Source: a virus (Duplodnaviria; Caudoviricetes). Taken from it: a stretch of 64,000 bases of DNA. The position numbers and the translations under genes were made by a program. Shown here one piece after another: positions 4,835-41,141 of the stretch. The stretch spans positions 20,260 through 84,259 of the IMG/VR virus record IMGVR_UViG_2738541308_000001. One strand, written 5' to 3'. The notes beneath the pieces were generated by a model that searched no databases, was not told the DNA's origin, and worked only from the letters and a program-made list of their open reading frames with translations. Position 1 is the stretch's first letter, and each line of letters opens with the position of its first letter.

Positions 4835-5191
4835 TCACACAGGTGACGCGTCGAACTGCGCCGCGATCCTCAGCAGCCGTTCCTGCCACACAACCGGCAA
4901 CGAGACAGTCTCGCCTTCGCCGTCGGTGGCCGTGAACACCACGATCCCGTAGTACGCCTGCCACGTGTACCCGAAGATCCGCGCAAGAGCCGTTGCCAAC
5001 AGGTTGACTTCCGGCTCGGCGACGCACAGACCTTCGTCGTCGATCCACATGTCGACCTCGTCGGGAACGAGCCGCACCACATCCACTGACCTGCAATCGA
5101 TCTCGCGATAGAACCCCTTCAACGTGTCGTCGCCGAGGTCTACCAGCGTCGCTGCGCCGTCAGTGTCAATCCGTACTGCCTGAACACCCAT
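4835..5191 (-). CDS. DUF3846-like protein
   Basis: MWIDDEGL...EVNLLAT...YYGIVVFT motif pattern. Confidence 0.75.
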   Translation of the reverse strand: MGVQAVRIDTDGAATLVDLGDDTLKGFYREIDCRSVDVVRLVPDEVDMWIDDEGLCVAEPEVNLLATALARIFGYTWQAYYGIVVFTATDGEGETVSLPVVWQERLLRIAAQFDASPV

Positions 5192-5500: not shown

Positions 5501-5609
5501 ATCGTTCTCCTAAGGGGATGACGACGAGCCCAAAAAGCCGTTCACAACACGGGACATGAGCAACCATCAAGGGCTGCCGGCCGGAGAGGTTGGGTGTCGA
5601 GCGGGTGGA

Positions 5610-5909
5610 TCAGTAGTGGAACGCTGCGAACGCCTCGACGACTTGCCAGTCGCCGTCGTGGACGTACTCGACGCTGGCACGTTCGCATGCGCGGTTGCGT
5701 GCCTTCACGTGCTGGTGGTGCTGCCCGGGGAACATGCCGGACGGAAGGTCCTTCCATCGCGGCGTGTGGCCCTGGAGGATCTGAACGAGGTAGAACTGCT
5801 CATGCTCGTCGCACCGAGCGGGCACGATGTCGAATGCGGTGTCCGGTTCGGTGATGAGCATGAGTACCGCAACTGCGCCAAAGAGATTCGCGATCTGAGA
5901 TGTGGGCAT
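5610..5909 (-). CDS. Hypothetical protein
   Basis: AGGAGG RBS. Confidence 0.6.
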   Translation of the reverse strand: MPTSQIANLFGAVAVLMLITEPDTAFDIVPARCDEHEQFYLVQILQGHTPRWKDLPSGMFPGQHHQHVKARNRACERASVEYVHDGDWQVVEAFAAFHY

Positions 5910-6008
5910 GTTTCCTCCTGTGTGGGGGTGACGTGCCGACAACCCTTAAAGGCTGCTCATGTCTGCTTTTCGTGCACCCTATGGGGCCACCGCCGGTGAT
6001 GGGCGGGG

Positions 6009-6251
6009 CTAGGGCTTGACGCCCCACTCCCGCATTCTCGCGACGTACTGTCCGAGAAGTGCCGGTTCGTGTTGTGCGAGGAGCTGCTGATATGCCGACG
6101 GCAGGGCCAGTCCGTCCCGGAACTGTCGTTCCCGGAGGGTGCTGTGTACCCGGATTTTGCCGCGCTGGATCTTGTTGTGAAGCAACTGTTCTGGGGTGAG
6201 ATGAGCGTTGCGCTCACGGGCTTTTTCTGCCAGGGTTGCGGTTGTTCGCAT
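6009..6251 (-). CDS. Hypothetical basic protein, first gene of leftward operon
   Basis: GGAAGG RBS; downstream of leftward promoter. Confidence 0.6.
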   Translation of the reverse strand: MRTTATLAEKARERNAHLTPEQLLHNKIQRGKIRVHSTLRERQFRDGLALPSAYQQLLAQHEPALLGQYVARMREWGVKP

Positions 6252-6302
6252 AGGGGTGACCTTCCGTGAGTGGAGGGTGGTCCTATGGGGTGCACGAATG
6301 TG

Positions 6303-6331
6303 CTCACACTGTGGAGTTCTCAAGGATCATG
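6303..6331 (-). promoter_or_regulatory. boxA-like antitermination motif
   Basis: Minus strand CATGATCCTTGAGAACTCCACAGTGTGAG, near copy at 32478-32506; resembles actinobacterial rrn leader boxA. Confidence 0.6.
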
Positions 6332-6465
6332 GGGGAGCGGATTTCACCCGACCAGATTCGGTGTCCGCACCCCAGCTGAGACTGGGGGGACTTACGGCCT
6401 TGCCGGCGGGCTTTCGTTGCCGGCTTCCAGTGGCCTTGTCAGTGACTGTCACTCACTGGCATGAC

Positions 6466-6499
6466 CATAGTTTGCACTATGGGTGCATAGTCTGTCAAC
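6466..6499 (-). promoter_or_regulatory. Leftward promoter with CTATG-N4-CATAG operator between -35 and -10
   Basis: TTGACA-18nt-CAAACT on minus strand; 31/34 identical to 32680-32713. Confidence 0.7.
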
Positions 6500-6732
6500 A
6501 CTTGGGTTAGATCCCAGGTCAAGGGTGGTTTGTCATGCCCCCAGGTGGGAGCTAGGGGAGTGGCTACCCCCTGAGTGGTGGTCAGTATGGGCACTGCACT
6601 GGTGGCCCCCTGGTGGCCCCTGGGGGCTCAATTGCCCCTTGGGGTACCCAAGGGGGCAGGATGGCACTTTCTGGCCCCTTAAGGGCAAATAGGGGGCACT
6701 ATGACCAAATAGCCAGAATTAGCCCTGAGGAC

Positions 6733-6762
6733 TTGACACACTATGCCCCCATAGTGTTACCT
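6733..6762 (+). promoter_or_regulatory. Rightward promoter overlapped by palindromic operator ACACTATG-CCCC-CATAGTGT
   Basis: TTGACA at 6733, palindrome 6738-6757, AAGGAGG RBS downstream; -10 not clearly canonical. Confidence 0.6.
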
Positions 6763-6807
6763 CAGTGCATGAAACCAGCTGCCCCACAACACAAAGGAGG
6801 TGAACCA

Positions 6808-7092
6808 ATGACAATCAAACAACACCCCGAAAGCCGACACGCCCACGCGATCCAGGCCTACCAAGCGATCCGAGACCTCGCCGACGCGCGAGCCCAACTC
6901 GACAATCTCCGCGCCGACGAAGGCCCGAGGTACGAGGCCCAACTCGACGCCGTTGCCCGCGCCGAAATCGAACGCGCCCACTACGGCGACTATCCGGACA
7001 CTCACAACCCGTTCTGGAACGCCGCCGACAACCCGTTCGGCAACACCCCGCGTCGACCCGAATGGTACGAGAACGACCCGGTAGACGCCTGA
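6808..7092 (+). CDS. Hypothetical protein, first of rightward operon
   Basis: AAAGGAGGTG RBS. Confidence 0.75.
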   Translation: MTIKQHPESRHAHAIQAYQAIRDLADARAQLDNLRADEGPRYEAQLDAVARAEIERAHYGDYPDTHNPFWNAADNPFGNTPRRPEWYENDPVDA

Positions 7093-7209
7093 ATCAGGTG
7101 TCTACTATCCATCGCGACATCCGGTCGTCTACTATCCAACACAACACACAGAAACCGGATAGAATGGCAATGCCCCTGGCAGGGCGAACAATCCGAGAGG
7201 ACACCCACA

Positions 7210-7407
7210 ATGAACACCCCCAAAAACCGCAGAGCCCGGCACACATTCCGGCCCACCGACAACCGCGAACCCATCGCTGTCGAAACCCTCGCGAACCGCA
7301 TCCACCGCGAAACGCCGTTGCAGTCGTTCAAAGCCGACCAGCGCGCCATGATCCACGCCGAAGCACGGCGCAGCATGATCGCCGCAGGCAAGGAGCTGAA
7401 ACTGTGA
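7210..7407 (+). CDS. Hypothetical protein
   Basis: GAGGA RBS, coupled downstream. Confidence 0.6.
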   Translation: MNTPKNRRARHTFRPTDNREPIAVETLANRIHRETPLQSFKADQRAMIHAEARRSMIAAGKELKL

Positions 7408-7723
7408 CCACCGCACTCGTCCGCAACGTCCACCTCACCGACAACGAACGAGCCGCGCTCACCGAACTCGGCATCGACACCAACCAACGCGACGTCGCCA
7501 TCACCATCACCGCCGACACGTCCTGGCTCAACCTCACCGAGCCACACGCATGGATCGCCGATTGGCACACCGGCACCGACCACACCGATCGCGACGACAG
7601 CGGCACTCTCGACGAACTGCCCGAGCGCATCCAGGCAATCACCGACGACCCCGAGTTCAACCGGGGAGCCGGACTGTCCATCGAAATCTGCCGCTGGCAC
7701 CTCTGGATCAACGGGCACCTGTC

Positions 7724-8071
7724 ATGAGTCCCGAAACCTGCACCCTCAACATCGAATTCGCCGAAGAGGTCTACCAGTACCTCATCGATCACCCCGACGA
7801 ACACAACCAAGGGCAGTGGACGAAGACCACGCCATGCGGCACCGTCCGATGCATCGCCGGAACCGCCTGCCACCTCGCCGGATACGAAATCACCCCTGCT
7901 TTCGGTGTCACCGGTGCGCTCGCCTACACAGCCCGCAAGCTACTCGGACTCACCGCCTGGGAAGCCGACCGACTGTTCTTCCTCACCGACAACGAGGCAG
8001 CGCTGCACCTCTTCCGCGAATACATCGACCGCGCCGAAGACGAACGCGACGCAGCCCTCGTCCAGCTATGA
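7724..8071 (+). CDS. Hypothetical phage protein (HxQxxW..CGTxxCIAG family)
   Basis: Coupled ORF; paralog at 9887-10213. Confidence 0.7.
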   Translation: MSPETCTLNIEFAEEVYQYLIDHPDEHNQGQWTKTTPCGTVRCIAGTACHLAGYEITPAFGVTGALAYTARKLLGLTAWEADRLFFLTDNEAALHLFREYIDRAEDERDAALVQL

Positions 8072-13861: not shown

Positions 13862-14490
13862 CCCGCTACTTCTACGACACCGAATTCATCGACGACGGCC
13901 ATATCATCGAGCTAATCTCGATCGGAATCGTCGCCGACGACGGCCGCGAGTACTACGCGGTCAATCAAGACGTATCGCAGGATCGGATACTGCAGTCGAC
14001 GTGGCTTCGGGACAACGTGTGGCCGTCGCTCCCTACCCGTGCCCTGACACAGCACGAGGAACTGATCCTGGGTGCCAGGCAATTCAGGCCACCAGCGCAA
14101 GCGCCACTGGCAACGGACCTGTACTACCGACTCGGAGCGATCGACACCGAAGCACCTGAAGTCAAACACAAGACGGTCATCGCTGACGAAGTGCGAGACT
14201 TCATCCTCCAACCCGCAGGGAACGAGATACGTGCCGACGTCGAACTCTGGGCAGACTACGCCGCATACGACCACGTCGCGCTGGCACAGCTTTTCGGCCC
14301 GATGATCGCTCTCCCGCACGGAATTCCGATGTTCACGAACGATCTGCAGCAGCTCGTCGGTCACGTCGTCGCACGTTCTACCCAGTCGTTGACGTTGCCG
14401 GTGCAGGAAAGCGGAGCGCATAACGCGCTCGCCGACGCCAGGCACCTCAAAGCCTGCTACGACGCCATCCGACAGATTGGTGGCGTCTGA
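13858..14490 (+). CDS. DEDDh 3'-5' exoribonuclease (Rv2179c-like)
   Basis: YFYDTEF, LISIGIVADDGREYYA, AYDHV, HNALADARH. Confidence 0.9.
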   Translation: MTRYFYDTEFIDDGHIIELISIGIVADDGREYYAVNQDVSQDRILQSTWLRDNVWPSLPTRALTQHEELILGARQFRPPAQAPLATDLYYRLGAIDTEAPEVKHKTVIADEVRDFILQPAGNEIRADVELWADYAAYDHVALAQLFGPMIALPHGIPMFTNDLQQLVGHVVARSTQSLTLPVQESGAHNALADARHLKACYDAIRQIGGV

Positions 14491-14491
14491 C

Positions 14492-15271
14492 ATGGCTGAA
14501 ATCGCGCACAGTGAACTGAAATTCAAGGCGATCGCCGACGCCAACACCGTCCTGCGCGGCCAAGTCGGATCAGGACTCCACGGCGTCACAACCGGCAACG
14601 ACGACAGAGACGAGATGGGTGTTTGCATCGAACCACCCGAGTTCGTCATCGGCGTCAGCAAATTCGAGCAATACCAGTACCGCACCCAGCCCGAGGGCGT
14701 CCGATCAGGTGCCGGCGATCTCGACATGGTCGTGTACTCACTTCGCAAGTGGGCACGACTAGCCGAGGCGGGAAATCCGACCGTACTACTGCTCATGTTC
14801 ATCCCACCGCACGAACTCGTCCTCAACACCTACGTGGGCGAGGACCTGCAGGCGCACCCCGAACGGTTCGTCTCACGGCAATCAGCCTTCCGATTCGCCG
14901 GATATCTGAAGTCGCAACGCGAACAGATGCTCGGCCTCCGAGGTAAGAAGCACACGAACCGACCCGAACTCCTCGCGGTCCACGGATTCGACACCAAATT
15001 CGCGTATCACATGGTCAGGCTTGGCATTCAGGGCGTGCAACTGTTGACCGAAGGCAAAATCACGCTACCGATGCCCGCCGGCGACCGCGCATGGTTGACC
15101 GAACTCCGTAACGGTGAACACACCCAGTTCGAAGCGCTCGACCGGGCAGCGGAACTCGAATCGCAGTTGATGCAACTATCGCGAACCGCCGACTATCCGA
15201 AGCAGCCAGACCGCGCACAGATCGACTCGTGGCTCGTATCGACCTACCGAGGATGGTGGGACTCGAAATGA
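14492..15271 (+). CDS. Pol-beta superfamily nucleotidyltransferase (RlaP/YcgL-like)
   Basis: GS..HG....DDRDEMG, GNPTVLLL, FDTKFAYHMVRL. Confidence 0.85.
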   Translation: MAEIAHSELKFKAIADANTVLRGQVGSGLHGVTTGNDDRDEMGVCIEPPEFVIGVSKFEQYQYRTQPEGVRSGAGDLDMVVYSLRKWARLAEAGNPTVLLLMFIPPHELVLNTYVGEDLQAHPERFVSRQSAFRFAGYLKSQREQMLGLRGKKHTNRPELLAVHGFDTKFAYHMVRLGIQGVQLLTEGKITLPMPAGDRAWLTELRNGEHTQFEALDRAAELESQLMQLSRTADYPKQPDRAQIDSWLVSTYRGWWDSK

Positions 15272-20192: not shown

Positions 20193-20215
20193 GTGCTGGG
20201 TGTCTAACGCGATGC

Positions 20216-20244
20216 TAGACATCGAGACATTCATCAGTTAGTCT
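20216..20244 (+). promoter_or_regulatory. Promoter of Y RNA/Ro operon
   Basis: TAGACA-17nt-TAGTCT, ending 13 nt before first Y RNA unit; overlapped by two inverted repeats. Confidence 0.6.
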
Positions 20245-20257
20245 CGATCACGTCACC

Positions 20258-20330
20258 ACACCGGTGCGAAGCCCACAGGCAGTTACTTCCTCTTCGAAAT
20301 ACACTGTCGCCCGGCATTTTTACTCGGTGT
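20258..20330 (+). ncRNA. Y RNA-like unit 1 (short, no tRNA domain)
   Basis: ACACCGGTGCGAA...TTACTCGGTGT terminal stem with bulged C; TACTTC motif. Confidence 0.75.
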
Positions 20331-20354
20331 CACAACTTTTCTTACAACTCAATA

Positions 20355-20499
20355 GAGTTCCGGTGCGAAGCACCGAGGGTTACTTCCAATCGCAATGGGG
20401 ATGTCACGGGTTCGAATCCCGTCACCGGATCTGCATCCGGTGTAGCTCAGTTGGCTAGAGCGCCTACGTCACCCTCACCGCAACCATTACTCGGAACTC
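20355..20499 (+). ncRNA. YrlA-like Y RNA unit 2 with permuted tRNA domain
   Basis: GAGTTCCGGTGCGAAG/TTACTCGGAACTC stem; T-arm GGGTTCGAATCCC, closed acceptor stem, D-arm TAGCTCAGTTGGCTAGAGC. Confidence 0.9.
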
Positions 20500-20513
20500 A
20501 CAACAACTTTCGC

Positions 20514-20586
20514 GCTCCCGGTGCGAATCGGTCCGGCTACTTCTTTGGGTGAAATTTGCCGACACCGAGCCCATTTCCTCGGGAGC
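20514..20586 (+). ncRNA. Y RNA-like unit 3 (short)
   Basis: GCTCCCGGTGCGAA/TTCCTCGGGAGC stem; TACTTC motif. Confidence 0.75.
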
Positions 20587-20600
20587 CGCACACTTCACAC

Positions 20601-20889: not shown

Positions 20890-20926
20890 CGTGGTGGCTC
20901 CCTCCGAATTGAACACGGAGAACACC

Positions 20927-22525
20927 ATGACCAAGTTCAACACCCCCGGAACACGAGCAACCGGACGACATCCGATCACCACCGACCGCCACCCATCCGG
21001 GCGGACCCACGAAGGCGCAGCCGGATACGCGCGTGACACCCAGTCCGAACTGTTCCTCCTCGCAGTGACCAACATGGTCGGTGAGAAGACGTTCTACGAA
21101 TCCGCCGCCTTACGCGATAACCGCTTCGGCGAACTGATCCGCACACTCGCCGCGCAACCGGACCCCGACCTCTGGCTCACACGCTTCGCCGGATGGCTCC
21201 GCAACTCCGCGAACATGCGTTCAGCCTCCCTCGTCCTCGCGGCAGAAGTCGTCCACGCCCGCCTCGCAGCCGGCCTGGCCGGTGGCAACAGGCAGATCAT
21301 CAATTCCGTGCTGCAGCGCGCGGACGAACCAGGCGAATTCCTCGCATACTGGCACACGAACTATGGCCGCAACCTCCCGCAGCCGGTCAAGCGCGGTGTC
21401 GGCGACGCCGCCACGCGCCTCTACACCGAGCGGTCTGCCATCAAATACGACACCGCATCTCACAGTGTCCGCTTCGCCGACGTCATCCGTCTGACTCACG
21501 CCGCCCCCAAAGCCGAATGGCAGAGCGACCTCTTCACCCACCTCGTCGGCGCCCGACTCGGCGTCGAAGACCTCACGATCCCCGAGTCGCTACTCATGCT
21601 GCGAGAAAACGCAGCCATGAAGGCACTGACTCCACAGCAGGCCGTCGACCTCCTCTTCACCCCGAACGACATCACCGACAACGCGTCCACTGCGCTCGCC
21701 GCTGCAGGAATGACATGGGAGCAGATCCCGTCCCTGATCAACGGACCGTGGACGGCCGCGATGTGGGAAGCGATCATCCCGTCGATGGGGTACATGGCGC
21801 TGCTGCGGAACCTCCGCAACTTCGACCAGGCCGGGGTCTCCGATGAAGTCGCAGAGCGGGTATGTAAGCGGCTCGTAGATCCCGAGCAGGTAGCGCGCTC
21901 GCGACAGTTCCCATTTCGGTTTTACTCGGCGTACAAGCACACGAACTCGCTGCGCTGGGCATACGCGCTCGAGAAGGCGCTCGGGATGTCGCTCGCAAAT
22001 GTTCCCCCGATGCCCGGCCGCACATTGATACTGGTCGACCAGTCGCCGTCGATGTTCCCCGGCTACTATTTCTCGACCCGAAACAGCAGTGACATCACGC
22101 TCGCCGAGCAGGCCGCACTCTTCGGGTCCGCGCTTGCGCTACGCGCGGAATCTGCGGATCTCGTCGGCTATGGCACCAATAGCTACTCGGTGCCATTCAC
22201 CCAGGGTGAAGCTGTCCTGCGCACGATGACGAAGTTTCACGTTGAAGACGGCACCGACACGGCCGCCGCAGTCGTTCACCGATTCAAGGGCCACGACCGC
22301 ATCGTGATCGTCACCGATGAGCAGACCCAGCGCAGTCGCTACGGCCGCATCGACGACTATGTTCCGGCGGGTGTTCCGGTCTATACCTGGAATCTCGGCG
22401 GCTATCAGCACGGCCACGGCCCGTCCGGGAACGCCCACCGGTACACCTTCGGTGGTCTAACCGATCAGATGTTCGCGATGATCCCGCTCCTCGAGCGTGG
22501 CGCCAACACATCGTGGCCGTTCTGA
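20927..22525 (+). CDS. rsr: Ro60/Rsr TROVE-domain RNA-binding protein
   Basis: THEGAAGY, ELFLLAV, MGYMALLRNLRNF, SRQFPFRF, vWA MIDAS-like DQSPSM and IVTDEQ; GGAG RBS. Confidence 0.95.
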   Translation: MTKFNTPGTRATGRHPITTDRHPSGRTHEGAAGYARDTQSELFLLAVTNMVGEKTFYESAALRDNRFGELIRTLAAQPDPDLWLTRFAGWLRNSANMRSASLVLAAEVVHARLAAGLAGGNRQIINSVLQRADEPGEFLAYWHTNYGRNLPQPVKRGVGDAATRLYTERSAIKYDTASHSVRFADVIRLTHAAPKAEWQSDLFTHLVGARLGVEDLTIPESLLMLRENAAMKALTPQQAVDLLFTPNDITDNASTALAAAGMTWEQIPSLINGPWTAAMWEAIIPSMGYMALLRNLRNFDQAGVSDEVAERVCKRLVDPEQVARSRQFPFRFYSAYKHTNSLRWAYALEKALGMSLANVPPMPGRTLILVDQSPSMFPGYYFSTRNSSDITLAEQAALFGSALALRAESADLVGYGTNSYSVPFTQGEAVLRTMTKFHVEDGTDTAAAVVHRFKGHDRIVIVTDEQTQRSRYGRIDDYVPAGVPVYTWNLGGYQHGHGPSGNAHRYTFGGLTDQMFAMIPLLERGANTSWPF

Positions 22526-23178: not shown

Positions 23179-23447
23179 CTGCAGCATCAACGATCCACCC
23201 GGACCGACACCCCCAAGCCGGGACCGCCGTCACCATCGACGTCCCCGGGATCGGGGCAGGGGAGTACTGGATCGAAGACTGGTGGGACCGCGCCGCAGGA
23301 ATGTCCTGGATGGTTGCGGACGGTAACCCTGCAGCGCTCAAGTATGCGATTCGCGTCGGATTCTCCAACCTGCCCGTCGACAACGAAGTCGTCTACGGGC
23401 ACCTCGGTAGCTTCGGGCACCTGATTCACACCTCGGAACTGCCATGA
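23175..23447 (+). CDS. Conserved phage hypothetical protein
   Basis: IEDWWDR...GNPAALKYA...DNEVVYG. Confidence 0.75.
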   Translation: MTAASTIHPDRHPQAGTAVTIDVPGIGAGEYWIEDWWDRAAGMSWMVADGNPAALKYAIRVGFSNLPVDNEVVYGHLGSFGHLIHTSELP

Positions 23448-24043
23448 CCGCCGCCGCAGTAACCGAGAAGCGTAAGCAACAGCGCGCCACACGAACCCGC
23501 ACCAAGATCCTCGTCAAAGCAGCACACCTCTTCGACACCCACGGCTACGCCGCGACCACCATCAACGATGTCTGCGAGTCCGGGCTCCTCACCAAAGGCG
23601 CGATCTACTACCACTTCACTTCCAAGGAAGAGATCGCCGGTGCACTGATCGGAATGTGGGTCGACGCAGCCACAGACATCAGCAACGACATCGACGGCGA
23701 CCCAGTCGACGCGCTCACCACCCTCGCGAGCAAGCTCGCTGACACCGCCGCGAAAAACCCGGAACTCCGCGCCGGACTGAAACTGAGCACCGAAACACAG
23801 ATCGACGCCAGCTACACCGGCTACGAATCGTGGACCAGCCTTGTCACCGAACGCATCTGCGATGCAGTCGACGCCGGCCAGCTCGTCAACACTCCCGCCG
23901 CGCGGCTCGCCGGAAACGGCATCTGCGCGGCGCTAGTCGGGTTCCTCATCACCCCTGGCAGTGGCTTCACCTTCACTGACCGTTTCGCAGAAACAGTCAA
24001 CGCGATCCTCGCCGGACTCCGACCACTGAAAGAAGCAGCATGA
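23444..24043 (+). CDS. TetR family regulator, ScbR/ArpA-like
   Basis: KQQRATRTRTKIL..AA..F...GY....TKGAIYYHFTSKEE. Confidence 0.88.
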   Translation: MTAAAVTEKRKQQRATRTRTKILVKAAHLFDTHGYAATTINDVCESGLLTKGAIYYHFTSKEEIAGALIGMWVDAATDISNDIDGDPVDALTTLASKLADTAAKNPELRAGLKLSTETQIDASYTGYESWTSLVTERICDAVDAGQLVNTPAARLAGNGICAALVGFLITPGSGFTFTDRFAETVNAILAGLRPLKEAA

Positions 24044-24300: not shown

Positions 24301-24623
24301 CCGGGTTCCTCGTCCATTTCTTCATCATCGTCGCAACGATCTGCAACGCAATCCTTGCAGGTTTCGCCATCGTGTTCGTCGTCTCGACAGTCCTGCCGAA
24401 CCCTCGACTGTTCAACATCCTCATCGGTTGGCTGACCGCACTCGGACCCGAAAGCAACGAGGATGCCGACGCGTGACCGACTCCGGTACACGCTGCGCCA
24501 GTGGCGGGGTCGCATCCGCCGAACCCTTCGCCGAGTACTGACCGCTGAATGGTTCGGACACATCGACCCCGCCGACTGGTGGGACTGACCAACACACTCA
24601 CTACCGGTAAGGAGCACCGCTCG

Positions 24624-25217
24624 ATGAGCAACATCTGGCTCACCGCAGACCTGCACCTCGCACATCCGAAGGTCGCAAAACTCCGCGGCTTCGACAGCAT
24701 CGACGAGCACGACCGAACAATCCTGTCGAACATCGCCAACACCCTCAACCGAAACGACCACCTGTGGATTTGCGGTGACCTCTCCAGCGGCGGCTCCGGG
24801 TCCGAACGGTCAGCACTCGATCAACTTCAGCAGTTCACACCGTTCTTCACCATGCATCTCGTCGCCGGAAACCACGATTCCGTGCACCCGATTCACCGGA
24901 AGGCCTACACACGGCAAGGAATCTTCGGGGAAGTGTTCGCGTCGATCCAACCGTTCGCCTACCGACGCGCGGCCGGGCACCGACTTTGGCTGTCCCACTT
25001 TCCATACTTCGGGGACGGCGACCGCGACGCCATCGAACGATTCCCGGAAGTGCGACTACACGACAACGGCATCGACTTCCTCGCACACGGCCATCTGCAC
25101 TGCACCGAGCAGTGGACCGGCCCCCGCTCCCTGCACGTCGGACTCGACGCCTGGAACCTCGCGCCAGTCAACATCGACACCGTCGTCGACATGATCGTAG
25201 AAAGAGCAGCAGCATGA
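24624..25217 (+). CDS. Calcineurin-like metallophosphoesterase
   Basis: DLH, GD, GNHD, HGHLH motifs. Confidence 0.92.
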   Translation: MSNIWLTADLHLAHPKVAKLRGFDSIDEHDRTILSNIANTLNRNDHLWICGDLSSGGSGSERSALDQLQQFTPFFTMHLVAGNHDSVHPIHRKAYTRQGIFGEVFASIQPFAYRRAAGHRLWLSHFPYFGDGDRDAIERFPEVRLHDNGIDFLAHGHLHCTEQWTGPRSLHVGLDAWNLAPVNIDTVVDMIVERAAA

Positions 25218-25750
25218 GCGCCGACCAACATCTCCTCGTCGCCGAGTTCCACCGCGCCTTCGGCCACCCCGTCGCGTTGATGCCGACCTGGCGCGACCAG
25301 AAAACCCGCGAACTCCGCATCCGGTTGCTCCTCGAGGAATACGACGAACTACGAGCAGCCGAGGCCGCGAACGACCGCGTCGAAATCGCAGACGCACTCG
25401 CCGACATCGCGTACATCGCACACGGCACCATGTGGGTGCACGGTCTGCCGTACTGGGCGAACAAAACCTTCGACGGAACTCTCGACGACGCAGTCGAAAA
25501 GTACCGCAACGCAGGCACACTCATCGAGGCGCACCTCGCGCTCTCCGTCATCCAGGTCCAGGTCCGGACCCACGCCGACACAGCAGGCATCCCGTTCGCT
25601 GCCGTGTTCACCGAAGTCCACGCATCCAACATGAGCAAACTCGGGCCCGACGGTAAGCCGATCTACCGCGCCGACGGCAAGATCCTCAAAGGCCCGAACT
25701 ACTTCGCCCCTGACATCGCTCGCATCCTCGCCGAAGTTGATGCCGCATGA
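25214..25750 (+). CDS. MazG-like NTP pyrophosphohydrolase
   Basis: EEYDE, EIADALADIAY, EVHASNMSK, DGKILKGPNY. Confidence 0.9.
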   Translation: MSADQHLLVAEFHRAFGHPVALMPTWRDQKTRELRIRLLLEEYDELRAAEAANDRVEIADALADIAYIAHGTMWVHGLPYWANKTFDGTLDDAVEKYRNAGTLIEAHLALSVIQVQVRTHADTAGIPFAAVFTEVHASNMSKLGPDGKPIYRADGKILKGPNYFAPDIARILAEVDAA

Positions 25751-25844
25751 AGCAGATGATCGCGGCACTCGCGGCAGCCGCCGTCACATTCGCCGCCCTC
25801 GTCTACATCGCATGGGTGGTGCTCACCGAAGGATTCGACAACAG

Positions 25845-26480
25845 ATGAACGATGCCTGCCTGTGTGGCCTGTGCCCGGCATGCCGACGGGAGGACAGAAT
25901 CTCCCAGCGGCCAACACCGACCGCGCCTCCCGTATTGTCGGAACCCGCGCGCCGCATTCTCGCTGAACCCGCCGGATACACCCCACCGCCTCGACCTCGC
26001 GTATCCACCTCGGCTCCCAAGCCGCCGAAGCGGAAACCGACATCCGCGCGCAAACCGCAGAAGAAGAGGACCCCTCGTCCCGCGCCAGCGAACCCGCGAC
26101 CAGTCGGACCAGCGGACCAATTCACCCCAACCCCGTGCGACGAATGCGGCGAACCGCGGATCGTAATCCCCTACGGACGCGCATTCACCCTCGCCGGCCG
26201 AAACGGACTGTGCGAGTTGTGCTTCGACAGCAGCAAAATGACATCGGAACTTGCACGCCTCGAGGCGCTGCCGCTGCCGTACACCCCGCAAATCCGCAAC
26301 CGGCTGAGAATGCTGCGTCGCCACCGAGAACGCGTCCTCCGCGACGGACGCCCGTATCACCAGGCCGCACCGCACGGGAAAGTCAGCGCCTACCAAGTTT
26401 TCGGATGCCGCTGCGCCCCGTGCCGCGCCGTCAAATCCGCGTACCTCCACGAGTACCGCTACCGCCGAACCAAGGACTGA
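25845..26480 (+). CDS. Multi-Cys Zn-binding hypothetical protein
   Basis: CLCGLCPAC, CDEC, CELC, HG...Y...GCRCAPCR. Confidence 0.65.
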   Translation: MNDACLCGLCPACRREDRISQRPTPTAPPVLSEPARRILAEPAGYTPPPRPRVSTSAPKPPKRKPTSARKPQKKRTPRPAPANPRPVGPADQFTPTPCDECGEPRIVIPYGRAFTLAGRNGLCELCFDSSKMTSELARLEALPLPYTPQIRNRLRMLRRHRERVLRDGRPYHQAAPHGKVSAYQVFGCRCAPCRAVKSAYLHEYRYRRTKD

Positions 26481-26582
26481 TCAATGGTCGATGGGCGAGG
26501 GAACTTGCGGGTCAGATTAGCCATCATGTGTCAATGCGACCCTAAACATCCGAAGCGGTCTGCGATAAGCGACAATCTCCCC

Positions 26583-27938
26583 ATGATCATCGTTCTTGAC
26601 ACGACAGTTGTGCTTTCGGACCCGCAGCTGCGGGCAGCGTGGTGGAATACTCTCAAGGAGACAGCCAAGCGAAATACTGCGCGAATCTTGGTCCCGGAAG
26701 TAGTCGTGATCGAGGCGGTCGCCAATCAAAGGCGAACCCTGGCCGCGTTGTCGAAGAAATTGATCGAGGCAGCTCAGCGGGAAAAGCGATTCGGTGTCGA
26801 CTCCATCTGTGATGCTATTGGCGCCGCAATTGATGCGAAAACTGAGGCATTTGAGCGAGAATTGCGCGGGCACCTGTCGTCTGTCGGTGCGACGTTCGTT
26901 CCACCCGCCTCGATTGATCATCTTGAGCTGGTCGCCCGTGCGGTGATGTTTCGCAAGCCCTGGGATGGTGACGAACGGAAAGATGGTTACCGAGACACGC
27001 TCAATTGGCTGACCGTCATCGATATTGCCGAGTCGAATGCAGGACACGAGGTCTGGTGGGTCTCGCAAAATTCCAAGGACTTCGGCGCCAACGATGACGA
27101 CGACAACCCTACGAAGTGGCACCACGACATCAATGAGGAGCTTCAATCGAAGGGGCTCATCGATCGGGTGAATTGGGCACACGACATTGCCTCACTCCTA
27201 TCCGCCATCGCTGAGCGCACTGCACCGGTTGCGGCTGGAGACAAGCAGGAGTTCGTCGAAAAGATATCCGAGAAAGAACTCTTCGGATACGTCTACTCTG
27301 AGCTAGTAGGTTGGAAACTTGAGGGTGCGGCAATTGGCCTTCCAAAGGCCACGCGGTCAGCGGAGATCGTATTCATGACGGACTTGCGCGACATCGAGTG
27401 GGAGAGCTTGGCAGGAGACGGCGATGGCGGATATGTAGCGCGTTTCAACTCGATCGTGCACGCTGGGATCAAGGCAGTGATTCCAGATGAGGACGGACTG
27501 CACTCGGTTACCCCAGAACGCGATTTCAGTATTTCCGGAGTTGCGAGCCTGACGCGAGATGGGTCAATTACCTCGGTTTCTCTATCCTCGATTGAGGTGA
27601 GTTCCGCACTCCTTCGCGAGGCGTTGGCAAATATCAAGCATGCAGCTCGTCATGCAGCGGATCGGCATTTGGATAGCAATCTTGGAGATCGAAATACACG
27701 CCGGAGGGTCCTTGCTGACGTACTGCTCATGGCTATCGCCGGCCTGAATAACCCGCAGCTAGCGGACCTTGACTTCGCTGCGCTCGAAACCACTTTGCGC
27801 GAATCTGGCGTTTCAGAGGATACGGTTACGAGCCTCTTGAAACAGGCAAAGCATATGCGCAACGCGACCCTTCACGGACGACCGCTCGAACCATTCGAAC
27901 TAGGGTCCGGAGAAGCGGCCTTGAACGATGATGACTAA
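26583..27938 (+). CDS. PIN-domain protein (PIN_12/DUF4935-like), moron
   Basis: IIVLDTTV, VPEVVVIE, KDGYRDTLNW, VSQNSKDF; lower GC. Confidence 0.85.
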   Translation: MIIVLDTTVVLSDPQLRAAWWNTLKETAKRNTARILVPEVVVIEAVANQRRTLAALSKKLIEAAQREKRFGVDSICDAIGAAIDAKTEAFERELRGHLSSVGATFVPPASIDHLELVARAVMFRKPWDGDERKDGYRDTLNWLTVIDIAESNAGHEVWWVSQNSKDFGANDDDDNPTKWHHDINEELQSKGLIDRVNWAHDIASLLSAIAERTAPVAAGDKQEFVEKISEKELFGYVYSELVGWKLEGAAIGLPKATRSAEIVFMTDLRDIEWESLAGDGDGGYVARFNSIVHAGIKAVIPDEDGLHSVTPERDFSISGVASLTRDGSITSVSLSSIEVSSALLREALANIKHAARHAADRHLDSNLGDRNTRRRVLADVLLMAIAGLNNPQLADLDFAALETTLRESGVSEDTVTSLLKQAKHMRNATLHGRPLEPFELGSGEAALNDDD

Positions 27939-31009: not shown

Positions 31010-31762
31010 TTACCCGATGGCCTGCCTTCCGGCGCCGACGCGGGTGTTCCCTACGTCGGCACGGTCACCTGCAGCATGGCCGGCTCGGTAACCTTCGCCG
31101 CGGCCGACGGAGCGCCCGCGACCCTGGCCGATCATTCCGGCGTACTTCTTGTACATCGCCGCCTGCGCTCGATCGAAGTCGCTCTTGAGCATCAGGGACG
31201 CTCCGGTGCCGCCGTTCTCACGGTCGTACGTCGACGCCGCATTGTCCTCGCTCTCCTGGATACGAGAACCGATGCGGTCCGCGAACCCGATCATGAATTC
31301 CGCGCGGTGTTCGGCGGTGAGGCGGGCTGAATCCTTCGGATCCCGTCCTGCGAACGGATTCGCTGGAATAGCTTGCGTTGCAGATGAAAGCAGCTGCGGC
31401 ATCAGGAGTTGGATCAAGAACTTCACGCGCTCGAGATGACGGGACAGCCCGAAAATCTGCAACACATGCTCACCATGCAGTTGAACGGCGTCGCAATGCA
31501 GGGACTTGGATACGCGATTGACCAGATACATCTTCTCGTAGCCGAACCGGTCACCGGTGTAGGTGAACGTTACCGCCTTCATTGTGTCGCCATCCACGTT
31601 GCCGGAACCGGCAGAACCACGGGCCATTGCTTCGTCGATGCCGTACTTCGCCAGGAGTTCGAATGCCTTCTCGCGCAACGTATCGGCCTCGAGTGTACCT
31701 TCGACCGAATCCGCCTTTGCGAACAGACCCTTGATCCTGTTGAGCATCTTGTTGTCAACCAT
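31010..31762 (-). CDS. DUF2786 domain protein
   Basis: RIKGLFAKA...EA....KAFELLAKYGID; GY.AG..AG..ADV. Confidence 0.85.
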   Translation of the reverse strand: MVDNKMLNRIKGLFAKADSVEGTLEADTLREKAFELLAKYGIDEAMARGSAGSGNVDGDTMKAVTFTYTGDRFGYEKMYLVNRVSKSLHCDAVQLHGEHVLQIFGLSRHLERVKFLIQLLMPQLLSSATQAIPANPFAGRDPKDSARLTAEHRAEFMIGFADRIGSRIQESEDNAASTYDRENGGTGASLMLKSDFDRAQAAMYKKYAGMIGQGRGRSVGRGEGYRAGHAAGDRADVGNTRVGAGRQAIG

Positions 31763-31885
31763 TGTGCGTGTCCTAACCTTTCGAGACTGAGGGTGAATTC
31801 CGAACGTCAGGGTGGGCACCGGGGACGGGTGCCCACCCTTGCTCCGGCGAGTGCCAGCTCGCCGGAGCCCACTGTCGAACGATGG

Positions 31886-32407
31886 TCACTCTTCGATGAC
31901 TTCTTCTGCGGTGACTCCCGATTGGGGAGCGTCATCGCCGTCATCGTCGAGGTCGATGGTCTGCTGGCCGGCGTTCTTTCCGTCACCGATTGCCTTCTGC
32001 CGGCTCTTACGCTTCGGCTTTGGGGCCTCGATCGGATTGAACATCCATTCAGCGGTGTGATTGCCCAGGTAGTTGATCAGCAGATCAGAACTCTTGAAGT
32101 CGATCGCTGCGCCGTCGGCGCCGATCTTCTTCTTGAGGTACCCGGTTTGTTCTGCGATGCAGAACCATTCACCACCGACGTGTTCCCATACGAGTTGGAT
32201 TTCACGGGCCTTACCTTCGGGAGATCCGTCGGCTTTGACCTTGTGTGCGCGGACGGTGATCCGCGCAACCACCTCGTTGACCACGCTGTGTTCGACGGTG
32301 TAACTCCAGCCCATGAGGAGCATCGCTCCGAGCACGTTCGTGAAGTCGTCCGGAAGGGTCTCAGTCTTGAAAACCGGGACATACGCTTCGGTGGACTTGC
32401 TGGACAT
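31886..32407 (-). CDS. Hypothetical protein
   Basis: GAAAGGGG RBS. Confidence 0.75.
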   Translation of the reverse strand: MSSKSTEAYVPVFKTETLPDDFTNVLGAMLLMGWSYTVEHSVVNEVVARITVRAHKVKADGSPEGKAREIQLVWEHVGGEWFCIAEQTGYLKKKIGADGAAIDFKSSDLLINYLGNHTAEWMFNPIEAPKPKRKSRQKAIGDGKNAGQQTIDLDDDGDDAPQSGVTAEEVIEE

Positions 32408-32477
32408 AATGGTCCCCTTTCCGAGGGATCATCGGCAGCAACACCATTGGGCATTGCTGCCTTGTGGTTGTGGGTGT

Positions 32478-32506
32478 CTCACGCTATTGAGTTCTCAAAG
32501 ATCATG
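32478..32506 (-). promoter_or_regulatory. boxA-like antitermination motif
   Basis: Minus strand CATGATCTTTGAGAACTCAATAGCGTGAG. Confidence 0.65.
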
Positions 32507-32679
32507 TGCTCGAGGGTTTCTCCCCTGGCCTATTCAGGGTTCCCAAGAGCCGGCATTCAGACTTGTGACGATATGAAGTTGTTGGGACAGACCAACACTG
32601 AGGTTTTCCAGACTCTGAGCTGGTATCCAGATTGCTTGCCAGCTGGCCTGTGTTGCTGGCCCCTACTGGCTTGCTGATG

Positions 32680-32713
32680 CATAGTTTGCCCTATGGGGGC
32701 ATAATCTGTCAAC
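32680..32713 (-). promoter_or_regulatory. Leftward promoter/operator, near copy of 6466-6499
   Basis: TTGACA-18nt-CAAACT with CTATG-N4-CATAA operator. Confidence 0.7.
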
Positions 32714-32948
32714 CCTGCAGGTGGGAGGCTATTTCTGGGGCAATTTATGGGCCTTGTTGACCTCTCAGGGCTGTGAACTGCCCCTTGGGCTGCACTGCAC
32801 CACTGGCCAACCTCAGGGATGGGTGGTCCTGGCCCTGAGATCAATTCTCAGAGCCTGTGAGTCACTATGGGTACATAGTGCCCAGAATGGCCCAAGGATT
32901 GCCCAGGGCCTCCCTCAGGGGCATTAATTGCAATAGTTGTAACAGAGC

Positions 32949-32978
32949 TTGCACTATTGGGGCATAGTGACCTAATGT
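32949..32978 (+). promoter_or_regulatory. Rightward promoter with operator CACTATT-GGGG-CATAGTG
   Basis: TTGCAC-18nt-TAATGT; additional operator at 32863-32880. Confidence 0.65.
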
Positions 32979-33128
32979 CAGGGGCACACCAGCTAGTCAA
33001 GCTGGCCCAGGGGGCAAGTGCCCCAGGGGAACATCCCAAACCAGTGAGGTCACTCATGGGAGAACATCACCCAAATGTCACCACAGCCCAGCCGGCCCAA
33101 CACCTCCCCAGCGAGACAGGGGAGTGAG

Positions 33129-33320
33129 ATGAAAAAGATCAGAGTCATCTGGGAAGAACACAGCACACACCAGCAGGAGTTCGACGTTCCGGACGACTTC
33201 GCAGTCGAACCACACGAAGAGGGATACGACCTCAGCAACGCGCTCGCCAGCCTCGTAGACGAGCGCGGCGACGGATTCCTGGGACTCGAACGCACCGTAA
33301 TCGACGTGACCGAGCTATGA
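33129..33320 (+). CDS. Small acidic hypothetical protein
   Basis: AGGGGAG RBS. Confidence 0.7.
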   Translation: MKKIRVIWEEHSTHQQEFDVPDDFAVEPHEEGYDLSNALASLVDERGDGFLGLERTVIDVTEL

Positions 33321-33631
33321 GCGACCAAACGACAGTCGCCGTCATCGAATACACCGATCACCACGGTGAAGTCAGATACTTCGACGACGGAGTCTGGGCT
33401 GACATCGAACTACCGAGCATCCGTGCGCACGCCGGCAGATACCTGTTCACCAACGAATCTCTCACCTGCACCGGCGACCACAAAAACGGAAGTTTCACCG
33501 TCGACTTCGGTGGCGGAGAAACGATTTGGTACGCATGGCGACTGCTGACCCTCGACGCACAGGACGCCGCGAACACCAGAATCATCGGTTGCGATTCCGA
33601 CGCGACTGTGACTGAACGGAGCACCACATGA
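33317..33631 (+). CDS. Hypothetical protein
   Basis: Coupled ORF. Confidence 0.65.
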   Translation: MSDQTTVAVIEYTDHHGEVRYFDDGVWADIELPSIRAHAGRYLFTNESLTCTGDHKNGSFTVDFGGGETIWYAWRLLTLDAQDAANTRIIGCDSDATVTERSTT

Positions 33632-34395
33632 TCGAACTCGACGGAATCACCCCGTCGAAGCAGATGCTCGACGACCTCGCAGCGGAAGGTCGACCCGTCA
33701 TCCTCAACTTCTCCCGCGGCAAAGACTCAGTCGCCGTCTGGATCGAACTCGAACGACGAAACATGCAGGTCATCCCGATCCACAAGTCGATCGTGCCGGG
33801 ACTGAAGTTCGTCGAGGACGATCTCAAACGCTACGAAGACTATTTTCAAACACATATCGTCGACCTGCCGGCAGATGCGTTCTACCGCATGCTCAACAAC
33901 CTCACCTTCCAGCCGCCCGAACGCTGCGCGATCATCGAAGCTGCAGGATTCCCGTCGCCGACACGCGAAGAGTGGGACATGCTCATGCGCGACAACTTCG
34001 CCGAGGACGACACCTGGATCCTCGACGGCGTGCGGGCAACAGACTCCGCCCAAAGGCGAATGGCGATCATGCGCCACGGCCCGATCAAACACCGCACCCG
34101 ACGCCAGTCCGTCATCTGGGACTGGGGCATCGCAGACGTGCGACGGGCGATCAAGGACCGCGGCATCACACTCGGCCCCGACTACGAGTGGTTCGGCAAA
34201 TACCTCGCCGGAAAAGTGAACCCCAGACACAGAGGCGGGCTCGACGGCAACGGTCGGTCCTTCGACGGAATTCGCTACGACTTCCTCAAGCCGATCCGCG
34301 ACCACGCCCCCGACGACTACCAGCGAATCCTGCACTGGTTCCCGCTGGCTGAACTCGAACTGATGAGAATGGACATGATCAATGGCTCTGTCTGA
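33628..34395 (+). CDS. PAPS reductase-like / PP-loop ATPase
   Basis: LNFSRGKDS PP-loop, GVRATDS..RR, IWDW. Confidence 0.85.
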   Translation: MIELDGITPSKQMLDDLAAEGRPVILNFSRGKDSVAVWIELERRNMQVIPIHKSIVPGLKFVEDDLKRYEDYFQTHIVDLPADAFYRMLNNLTFQPPERCAIIEAAGFPSPTREEWDMLMRDNFAEDDTWILDGVRATDSAQRRMAIMRHGPIKHRTRRQSVIWDWGIADVRRAIKDRGITLGPDYEWFGKYLAGKVNPRHRGGLDGNGRSFDGIRYDFLKPIRDHAPDDYQRILHWFPLAELELMRMDMINGSV

Positions 34396-34762
34396 CGAAG
34401 TGAAAGCAAAGCTCAAAGCCGGAGGCAATCGCGCGAAGTTCTCCCGCGCAGACGTCGTCTCCGCCTTGAAAGCGAAACCCCACCCCGACCCCCTCGCCGA
34501 CGTCGAATACACCGACGACATCGAGCACGACACGAAGGCCGAACTCAACGCGCTCGGCAAAGGCTTGTCCGGAGCGTCGAAAGAGTGGGCTGAACAGTTC
34601 GGCCAGATGAACGACTCCGAGTACTGGGTCGCACTGTGCTTCAAGAACCGTGCAGCGAAAGATGCCTTCCTCGCCAGCGCCGGCGTGCTCGAACTAGGGG
34701 ACAAGTACCTCGACGGTCACAAAGCCGCAGAGATCCTCGGAATCGAATTCGAGGGCCGGTAA
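34382..34762 (+). CDS. Conserved hypothetical partner of PAPS reductase-like gene
   Basis: DSEYWVALCF...GDKYLDG; overlaps upstream gene. Confidence 0.8.
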   Translation: MALSDEVKAKLKAGGNRAKFSRADVVSALKAKPHPDPLADVEYTDDIEHDTKAELNALGKGLSGASKEWAEQFGQMNDSEYWVALCFKNRAAKDAFLASAGVLELGDKYLDGHKAAEILGIEFEGR

Positions 34763-34891
34763 CCACCGACTTCCCCACCCGGGCAACCGGGTTGCGGGTT
34801 GACCAAAAGCCCACCAGCAGCTGAAAGCCCCGAGTCGCCGAAGTGTCTCGGGGCTTTCTGCTGCCCGGATCACAGGAAAGGAGGGGTGACC

Positions 34892-35014
34892 ATGCGTAAT
34901 GCAGCCCGTCGTCTCGGCCAGCGCATCTCCGGTGTTTTCAACCGAATCACTGGCCGTAACCGCAACCGCACCGCCGCAAGCCCGGCAGCCGGTTCTCTCA
35001 GCGGTTCGACCTAA
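34892..35014 (+). CDS. 40-aa Arg-rich peptide
   Basis: Strong RBS AAAGGAGGGG; MRNAARRLGQRISGVFNRITGRNRNRTAASPAAGSLSGST. Confidence 0.7.
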   Translation: MRNAARRLGQRISGVFNRITGRNRNRTAASPAAGSLSGST

Positions 35015-35114
35015 GAGGTCAGGCGTTGGTCGCGTGCTTGAAATGTGCACCGACCGACGTCACAACCCGTCCCCACAACTGAACAATCGAGCCGACTCTG
35101 ACGGGAGGGCCAAC

Positions 35115-35465
35115 ATGAGCAGCCCGGAGCTTTCCGTAGTTTCCCTGCGCCCCAACCACAAACCACCTGAGCCCACTTCATCGGACGCGCCACCGGAGAC
35201 ACCAGAGTGGCTGACCGACATCGGCAAACAGACGTGGGCACGGTTGGCCCCCTTGTTCAATCTCACGCCCGCTGACATCGACGAATTCGCCGCCTACTGC
35301 GAGGCGATCGCCGAATATCAGGAATCGACCGTCATCATCGCCGAAGCTGGACTGCTCATCATCGACCCTGCGTCGGGCATGCCGATTCCGAACCCGATTC
35401 AGGCCGTTCGTGATCGAGCGGACCGCAAACTCGCATTTTGGGCCGGCCGCTTTCGAGGCGCGTGA
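35115..35465 (+). CDS. P27-family terminase small subunit-like protein
   Basis: PEWL...GKQTWARL, D...FAAYCEA, PNP. Confidence 0.75.
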   Translation: MSSPELSVVSLRPNHKPPEPTSSDAPPETPEWLTDIGKQTWARLAPLFNLTPADIDEFAAYCEAIAEYQESTVIIAEAGLLIIDPASGMPIPNPIQAVRDRADRKLAFWAGRFRGA

Positions 35466-35468
35466 TAC

Positions 35469-41129: not shown

Positions 41130-41141
41130 CGTCCCCCGTAC

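Follow-up and report, generated by a model that had tools for sequence, protein, structure and literature searches.

Divergent operator/promoter control regions are familiar from temperate phages, the OR-type region of lambda and the early leftward promoter region of the L5-like mycobacteriophages being described cases. Short-repeat arrays bound by ribbon-helix-helix (RHH) or repressor proteins, such as the omega heptads and the stoperators of cluster A phages, form a further type of control DNA. Restriction-site avoidance is exemplified by the first-step-transfer region of T5, which is without EcoRI sites, and at the Dam GATC sites in the pap, agn43 and IS10 promoters the methylation state alters protein binding. 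To our knowledge, no phage or bacterium has been described in which selection keeps one dinucleotide entirely out of regulatory DNA, and no description of CG-free control regions was found in the literature at the level of abstracts. In this study, we analyzed a 64,000-nt stretch of a Caudoviricetes genome (hereafter the window), bases 20260-84259 of the 84,259-bp single-contig virus record IMGVR_UViG_2738541308_000001, which IMG/VR classes as a provirus with a CheckV completeness of 98%. The subject is R1, a zone of the window that is entirely devoid of CG dinucleotides, together with a second zone of the same kind, R2.

A previous sequence-only reading had proposed that the segment 6423-6827 contains no CG while remaining G+C-rich, and that the adjacent line 6841-6900 holds 9 CG. 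All of this was borne out by the counts. R1 (window 6423-6827) is 405 bp long and has 0 CG compared to 31.5 expected from the local base composition; the last CG before it starts at 6421 and the next one after it at 6828. Its G+C content is 55.8%, with 111 C, 115 G, 48 GG, 44 CC, and 25 GC. The Poisson probability of such a void was approximately 2e-14 under the local base composition and approximately 8e-23 when the CG rate of the whole window (0.118 per position) was used. The provirus as a whole has 61.9% G+C and a CG observed/expected ratio of 1.25. R2, which was absent from the earlier reading, is longer: it occupies window 32570-33092 (gap from 32569 to 33093), comprises 523 bp of 55% G+C, has 0 CG compared to 39.6 expected, and sits upstream of the operon leading into the terminase and structural genes. 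The third-longest CG gap in the 84,259-bp record was 98 bp, in the repressor-side intergenic region near the integrase. When 300-bp sliding windows were moved along the whole window, the CG observed/expected ratio fell below 0.5 solely around R1 and R2. CA/TG and CC/GG were over-represented in both voids (1.3-1.6), which is largely the arithmetic result of forbidding CG and thus no independent signal. There is practically no chance that a random event, or an artefact of assembly or composition, produced the void, given a probability of approximately 1e-14 or less for R1 alone and its recurrence across independent assemblies and isolated, sequenced phages.

The orthologous regions were then checked for normal CG levels. 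The terminase of the provirus has 60-62% identity to its counterparts in the ~85-kb temperate Gordonia phages VanLee, Morgana, Aleemily, ObLaDi, and Cafasso. The gene order is largely common with VanLee: integrase, helix-turn-helix (HTH) repressor, Cas4-like exonuclease, RecT, and later a Ro-like protein, followed by a leftward block of small genes, the PAPS-reductase-like gene, the terminase, and the structural genes. The zones were CG-free in VanLee, in Aleemily and Morgana (apart from two CG in the main void of each), and in six of eight relatives retrieved from IMG/VR by a PAPS-reductase profile. In VanLee (67.8% G+C), 340 bp at 82328-82668, upstream of the PAPS-reductase-like gene, are without CG; tandem 9/12-bp GGCCACCAG(G) units make up most of this void and form a repeat region that the VanLee genome announcement does not mention (PMC8320454). 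The main voids of Aleemily (720 bp) and Morgana (675 bp) lie in the same place as that of VanLee; one of their two CGs falls in the 4-bp spacer of an ACTATG-N4-CATAGT palindrome and the other in the spacer of a TTGACAC...AGTGT module. In both phages a second void (176 or 179 bp) fills the divergent intergenic region beside a DUF3846 homologue. Since the leftward block of R1 also includes a DUF3846 gene, R1 is orthologous to that second void. The zones of the six IMG/VR relatives were 281-372 bp long and directly upstream of the PAPS-reductase homologue, one of them being split by a single CG, and the other two relatives (L018 and L019) have no non-coding region at that site. Contig L003, which is 97.5% identical to window 31987-35809, retained a 525-bp void. 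Altogether, eleven pooled zones contained 5 CG in 4,609 bp compared to 356 expected, several of these zones being related to one another and hence not independent samples. The void sequences of the relatives are otherwise largely unalignable; it is the CG-freeness that is kept at orthologous places. A DNA similarity search with R1 and R2 gave no match among 50,697 phage records, and an exact 34-mer pattern common to the two zones gave none in viral contigs. The right ends of PSonyx and Keanu (~14 kb each, the parts of these genomes that the comparison covered) showed no void, and their gene organisation differs.

Ordinary non-coding DNA served as a control. In this genome, 34 of the 36 gaps between open reading frames (ORFs) had CG observed/expected ratios of 0.45-1.70, and the two void-containing gaps had 0.24 and 0.12; the gaps were stretches of at least 100 bp between ORFs called by third-position G+C. 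The ratio was 0.72-1.49 for 26 of the 27 annotated intergenic gaps of VanLee (at least 85 bp). Long non-coding stretches of other actinophages were likewise CG-normal, with 102 CG compared to 110.7 expected in the 1.25-kb right end of Mycobacterium phage 40AC and 52 compared to 47.1 in a 639-bp stretch of Rhodococcus phage Maselop. In 400 kb of a chromosome from an assembly that also holds a close relative, the longest CG gap was 88 bp, with the proviso that this assembly is labelled Streptomyces, has the relative on ~4-kb contigs only, and may not be the true host. Smaller gaps were seen at immunity regions. The divergent region separating the HTH repressor-like gene from its neighbour (G000:C1:1559-1772) has 47% G+C, a CG observed/expected ratio of 0.45, and a 98-bp gap, and the cI/cro region of Rhodococcus phage Sleepyhead has a 94-bp gap; the immunity region of VanLee is CG-normal (0.94). 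Short CG gaps may be common at immunity promoters.

The earlier reading had attributed the void to selection, and this was upheld not only by the orthologous CG-freeness but also by the substitutions between close pairs, which almost never create CG inside the zones and do so freely in the flanks. Between R2 and its counterpart in L003, 43 substitutions in 522 aligned bases gave 0 new CG compared to 7.8 expected; between L012 and L013, 59 substitutions gave 0 compared to 9.9; and the 104 substitutions between Aleemily and Morgana included two CG differences. Over all three pairs, with 206 substitutions in total, 2 events made or broke a CG, compared to 34.5 ± 5.3 in a simulation that preserved the transition and transversion counts, and the remaining 15 dinucleotides stayed within about 2.5 standard deviations of the simulation. 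In the coding flanks of R2, by contrast, 22 of 53 substitutions made or broke a CG, against 0 of 43 in the void (Fisher P = 2e-7). For R1, contigs of strains X4 and X12 have 22 listed variant events within 6423-6827, none of which creates a CG on a check by hand; 14 more differences fall outside the listing, and one further change abolishes the boundary CG at 6828. The zones are by no means frozen, as close relatives differ at 8-18% of zone positions with all substitution types, and R2 and L003 differ by 18-22 substitutions per 200 bp in the core compared to 0-8 per 200 bp in the flanks. Among 3- and 4-letter words, no others were strongly avoided in the zones, and in nine pooled zones GGCC occurred 46, TGCA 31, and CTAG 23 times. 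Therefore, the CG-freeness of R1 and R2 is kept by CG-specific purifying selection, while other substitutions accumulate freely, a conclusion that is well supported.

The same data bear on mutational decay, that is, on the possibility that methylated CGs deaminate to TG/CA faster than they arise, with no selection involved. The excess of TG/CA roughly matches the missing CG, and the provirus carries a C5-methylase gene. However, the excess of TG/CA and CC/GG is automatic once CG is forbidden, CG is over-represented genome-wide, the ordinary intergenic DNA of these phages is CG-normal, and there are void-bearing relatives without the methylase. The flank rates are the most telling: in the flanks, a column within a CG is only 2.3 times as likely to have changed as another column (22/774 compared to 31/2,526), and an equilibrium CG observed/expected ratio of ~0.014 needs a bias of roughly 70-fold. 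Mutational decay is thus close to refuted.

R1 and R2 are each located between a leftward and a rightward block of genes, an arrangement also present in VanLee, Aleemily, and Morgana. The two arms of a 39-nt inverted repeat in R1 face outward, are 77% complementary, and leave 234 nt between them; each arm combines TTGACA with a palindrome (Table 1). The 234 bp between the arms hold two copies of CTGGTGGCCCC and several GCCCCC/GGGGGC inverted repeats, and GGGGCA/TGCCCC occurs 14 times in R1 and R2 together compared to 0.38 expected from the rest of the genome. A head-to-tail array filling the void was not seen in a general repeat analysis (no dedicated tandem-repeat search was made), in which the CTGGTGGCCCC pair was the sole tandem of R1 and none was present in R2. 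The palindrome ACTATG-N4-CATAGT, scanned for as ACTAT-N5-7-ATAGT, has four copies in the 84-kb genome, two per void and none elsewhere, and it is also found once each in the main voids of Aleemily and Morgana. As the palindrome is confined to R1 and R2 in this genome, one palindrome-binding regulator probably governs both regions. Apart from this, R1 and R2 are alignable in islands only, namely a 34-mer at each left void edge and, farther left within the CG-normal spacer, an 18-mer; the palindromes, the 34-mer, and the 18-mer follow in the same order at both. The 18-mer may be a leader or promoter element of the leftward genes. Words resembling it were noticed at the same relative place in L017 and Aleemily. 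The spacer that forms the 5' leader of the leftward gene at R1 (6253-6422, minus strand) has 11 CG compared to 15.9 expected, and the leftward leader at R2 (32408-32569) is CG-normal as well. From the putative start sites, the CG-free stretch continues for some 40-110 nt into what would be transcribed DNA in either direction.

The earlier label of "early divergent promoters" fared less uniformly. Its divergent part holds, in that R1 has outward genes, bracketing modules, and operators common to R2; the words "early promoters" are an interpretation, and no canonical promoter pair was recovered in R1. Promoter roles at R1 are suggested by the TTGACA hexamers, the symmetry, and the gene arrangement. 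A consensus promoter scan gave no match inside R1 and one in R2, and a scan for TTGACA (at least 5/6), 16-19 nt, and TANNNT gave 0. TTGACA-N17-TAGGCT was recognized by eye in the Aleemily and Morgana voids.

This anatomy raises the possibility that CG is missing as a by-product of architecture. The zones could be densely filled with overlapping protein-binding and promoter sites that happen to have no CG, perhaps in a wrapped or looped nucleoprotein complex. CG would then be kept out either by constraint on nearly every position or by a physical unfitness of CG steps for the required shape, bending, or melting of the DNA, and no reader of CG would be needed. The VanLee void consisting mostly of its tandem units, the Aleemily and Morgana voids packed with CTGGTG/CACCAG, and the 14 GGGGCA/TGCCCC copies and many inverted repeats of R1 and R2 are in line with such an explanation. 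A weak 10-11.5-bp phasing of A/T dinucleotides adds to it, with a shuffle fraction of at most 0.10 in seven of eleven zones and 0.000 in one; the phasing is absent, however, from the other four. Moreover, zones that diverge by 8-18% through all substitution types, with CG alone missing among the changes, are not tightly constrained, and the repeat motifs vary between phages while the CG-freeness is constant. Demands of melting or bendability would allow an occasional CG, more often than 5 in 4.6 kb where 356 are expected. We therefore regard an architectural by-product as rather unlikely. CCWGG enrichment was also considered as a common motif and dismissed as not universal: VanLee, Aleemily, and Morgana are strongly enriched and the provirus moderately so, but L012, L014, and L017 show no enrichment.

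A constraint at the RNA level was likewise considered, in which most of the void would be transcribed as a long leader and CG avoided because of a CG-cutting endoribonuclease or for the sake of a fold. Single contigs from two soil RNA libraries cover 6496-7800 and 6592-7788, the CG-free stretch of R2 goes about 108 nt beyond the putative rightward start, and R2 folds somewhat better than shuffled sequences (z = -2.27). Nevertheless, the RNA-library contigs may derive from DNA, and they prove neither transcription nor starts nor strand; the contigs break at 6466-6499, which is the position of the 34-mer that R1 and R2 have in common. CG levels are normal in the leftward leaders (6253-6422 and 32408-32569), the fold of R1 has a z of only -1.35, no Rfam match was found at the voids at the gathering threshold (a tRNA was the only match in the window), and the sequence evolves fast without visible covariation. 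The outward orientation of the modules would also put the 234-bp centre upstream of both putative promoters. An RNA-level constraint is accordingly a very unlikely cause.

The explanation we favour, with a probability of roughly 0.4, is that R1 and R2 are paralogous control regions from which CG is excluded since a factor reading CpG on double-stranded DNA harms the assembly of a regulatory complex or the access of polymerase. R1 is one of the two paralogous control regions of an ~84-kb temperate siphovirus integrated as a provirus, each region dividing a leftward block of small early-type genes from a rightward operon. Short G/C-rich repeats, both inverted and direct, form an array between the outward TTGACA-plus-palindrome modules, and the CG-free unit runs from ~40-110 nt downstream of one putative start to the same distance past the other. 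The factor would disturb the assembly of the regulatory complex or the access of RNA polymerase; it might be a modification of cytosine in CG context, or else a DNA-binding protein that depends on CpG and stems from the phage, a co-resident prophage, or the host. Each new CG inside the zone would then be individually deleterious, and CG would be tolerated where DNA is translated or transcribed in the ordinary way. To us, an activity that reads CpG at the level of DNA appears, tentatively, the most economical mechanism, with a purely architectural constraint as its main rival. It is quite doubtful whether one can go further and suppose that such an activity, whether a CG-context modification or a binding or silencing protein dependent on CpG, marks or coats nearly all CpG DNA, the two master control regions having evolved as unmarked, accessible CpG-free windows.

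Several observations weigh against a CpG-reading factor. Variable spacer DNA is CG-free too, although the effect of a modification would be expected within binding sites alone. CG levels are normal in the leftward 5' leaders, so CG-freeness does not simply extend to all regulatory DNA. Neither of two scans, one for consensus promoters and one for at least 5/6 of TTGACA, 16-19 nt, and TANNNT, found a canonical -35/-10 pair inside R1. In addition, the void of Aleemily and Morgana, with 15.4% divergence, does not evolve faster than its flanks (10.1% and 22.8%). We know of no CpG-specific methylation in Actinobacteria. The remaining points concern the agent. A PF00145 gene was not found in the complete, void-bearing genomes of VanLee, Aleemily, and Morgana, nor in 5 fragmentary relatives, and Sleepyhead, whose methylase is the closest homologue of that of the provirus, has no more than its 94-bp CG gap in the repressor/cro region. 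No close solved relative of the C5-methylase was found. The SRA domain (PF02182) was found in 0 of 4 phage genomes, and so was the CXXC domain (PF02008), the latter being a weak negative as the search matched none of its control genomes.

The earlier reading had offered three kinds of agent. A CG-site nuclease is implausible, as it would face a genome that is otherwise CG-rich (observed/expected 1.25). A CG modification gains from the presence of a C5-cytosine methylase gene in this provirus (PF00145, 576 aa, G000:C1:12112-13842, upstream of the window) and loses from its absence in VanLee, Aleemily, and Morgana. A CG-binding protein is still a candidate type; no SRA domain was found in the four genomes, and the CXXC search gave the weak negative mentioned above. 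Homologues of the C5-methylase were found in 346 phage records, of which 117 are Gordonia phages, the closest being that of Sleepyhead with 68% amino acid identity. The C5-methylase is a possible reader or writer of CG in this provirus. As a general cause of the voids, a phage methylase was rejected on the strength of the three void-bearing phages and the five fragmentary relatives without PF00145 and of Sleepyhead with its short gap. A DUF5131 protein (412 aa, with a weak match to radical-SAM mobile pair protein A) is encoded near the methylase, both within G000:C1:10105-13842.

The coordinates of the elements and of the genes flanking the zones are collected in Table 1. The 173-aa gene is kept beside the void in VanLee, Aleemily, Morgana, and L012-L017. 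The family has a conserved core and an acidic C-terminal tail ending in EEVI(E/D)E, and its longer members carry an extra N-terminal basic stretch rich in Lys, Ala, and Pro and a CxxC motif. The AlphaFold2 model of the 173-aa protein (mean predicted local distance difference test score, 62) predicted a core made of a helix plus a curved sheet; there was no usable Atlas match, no PDB fold at E <0.001, and nothing to suggest a reader of DNA or CpG. Neither the DUF2786 protein nor the PAPS-reductase-like gene gave an informative family or fold match, and the PAPS-reductase-like profile gave no informative PDB or NCBIfam match. No repressor gene adjoins a void, the void-flanking genes being without family match; the HTH_3 repressor-like gene lies at G000:C1:1184-1558, next to the integrase and ~25 kb from R1. 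The void precedes the PAPS-reductase-like gene across the lineage, but a functional link between the two was rejected. The longest gaps of unrelated PAPS-reductase carriers were 72 bp (Cutibacterium phage CA1NRNZ) and 70 bp (Bifidobacterium phage BigBern1), and L018 and L019 have the gene with neither a void nor non-coding DNA there; the adjacency is therefore just synteny. Among 401 genomes of the class of G001, the assembly to which L003 belongs, the PAPS-reductase profile matched in G001 only.

Table 1. Elements of R1 and R2 and genes flanking them (window positions).
Feature	Position	Strand	Remarks
DUF3846 gene, leftward block of R1	4835-5191	-	
First leftward gene at R1	6009-6251	-	80 aa, MRTTATLAEKARE..., no family match
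Conserved 18-mer GAGTTCTCAAGGATCATG / GAGTTCTCAARGATCATG	6314-6331 and 32489-32506		CG-normal spacer left of each void
R1 left arm, 39-nt inverted repeat	6460-6498	-	On minus strand TTGACA, palindrome, CAAACT; putative leftward promoter/operator module
34-mer common to R1 and R2	6466-6499		R1, left arm; exact repeat
Operator-like palindrome O1 ACTATGGGTGCATAGT	6476-6491		R1
Tandem CTGGTGGCCCC x2	6599-6620	+	R1 centre
Palindrome TGCCCCTTGGGGTACCCAAGGGGGCA	6633-6658		R1; one of several GCCCCC/GGGGGC inverted repeats
R1 right arm, 39-nt inverted repeat	6733-6771	+	TTGACA, palindrome O2 (6740-6755), TTACCT; putative rightward promoter/operator module
Shine-Dalgarno-like AAAGGAGGTG	6793-6802	+	Before ATG at 6808
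First rightward gene at R1	6808-7092	+	94 aa, no family match; R1 void extends 20 nt into gene
DUF2786 / phrog_421 gene	31010-31819	-	Conserved second leftward gene at R2
First leftward gene at R2	31886-32407	-	173 aa, acidic C-terminal tail ...EEVIEE
34-mer common to R1 and R2, CATAGTTTGCCCTATGGGGGCATAATCTGTCAAC	32680-32713	-	TTGACA on minus strand
Palindrome ACTATGGGTACATAGT	32864-32879		R2
Palindrome ACTATTGGGGCATAGT	32953-32968		R2; overlaps sole consensus promoter-like match of R2 (minus strand, 32981-32953)
First rightward gene at R2	33129-33320	+	63 aa from ATG
PAPS-reductase-like gene, phrog_2302	33628-34395	+	

Near-identical copies of 5600-7800 were seen in runs X1-X20, which come from isolates and from biofilm, factory, protist-associated, and soil samples of 15 studies. 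The contigs of G001 (L004 = G001:C78 and L003 = G001:C83) end at window ~7095 and at ~31987/35809, and R1 is not assembled there; this 97.5% relative is present in G001 on ~4-kb contigs only, so that low coverage is possible and G001 may not be the host.

Elsewhere in the window, the Ro-like protein (20891-22525) is 45% identical to VanLee gp126. The 402-bp gene-free stretch ahead of its gene (20193-20594) could hold a Y-RNA-like gene; Rfam detected none there at the gathering threshold. An RlaP-type nucleotidyltransferase gene lies at 14477-15271 and a tRNA-Arg(CCT) gene at 41058-41130. A TetR-family regulator (23444-24043), a metallophosphoesterase (24549-25217), and a pair of 247 and 484 aa (25737-27938), the second member of which has a PIN_12 domain, form a cluster that may be a prophage-borne defence or accessory module. 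In VanLee, gp163, annotated as a membrane protein (82424-82726; L002 32424-32726), is an open frame through the GGCCACCAG(G) array and probably not a real gene.

The exclusion of CG implies either a cell component that reads CpG or a regulatory complex that is intolerant of CpG, and either conclusion would be a novelty in the biology of Actinobacteria and their phages. The trait is sharply defined, present in the cultivable phages VanLee and Aleemily (on the harmless host Gordonia rubripertincta), and directly testable. As a signature, CG-free runs of >200 bp at >50% G+C can point to the master control regions of related phages and reveal mis-annotations, for example gp163 over the VanLee repeat array.

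Compared with the described systems, R1 resembles the lambda OR- and L5-type regions in lying between opposed gene blocks and in having repeated palindromic operator-like sites that overlap TTGACA; the recurrence of these operators at a second locus, R2, likewise implies one regulator for both. It departs from them in the length of the zones (400-700 bp), in a repressor gene 25 kb off, in having no canonical -10 at normal spacing, and in the total exclusion of CG, the comparable 1.25-kb right end of 40AC being CG-normal. Like the omega and stoperator arrays, VanLee has a tandem 9/12-bp array and R1 and R2 have many short G/C-rich repeats, and an RHH protein is conserved in this phage lineage; the repeats of the provirus, however, are degenerate and of partial coverage, and the repeat families differ among the relatives where the CG-freeness does not.

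With restriction-site avoidance the voids share the absence of a short palindromic word through selection in a phage. Here, however, a dinucleotide is avoided in ~1% of the genome and over-represented elsewhere, and GGCC, CTAG, and TGCA are frequent in the zone. Genome-wide depletion of specific 4-8-bp palindromes was not seen; only CG-containing words are missing, and only in the zones. Since the VanLee genome is circularly permuted (PMC8320454), no segment always enters the cell first. The Dam-type regulatory regions provide the working analogy, in that short palindromic sites in regulatory DNA are under selection. Those systems keep and use a few sites, whereas all have been purged here, and the methylase and its specificity are hypothetical. 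Finally, the voids recall the depletion of CpG and the CpG islands of vertebrates, as a regional, dinucleotide-specific contrast is tied to regulatory DNA, but the polarity is inverted: the regulatory DNA is CpG-free, the bulk is CpG-rich, and selection rather than decay maintains the difference. If the doubtful further step holds true and nearly all CpG DNA is marked or coated, the zones would amount to an inverted version of CpG islands in prokaryotes and would represent a new layer of phage gene control or of defence evasion.

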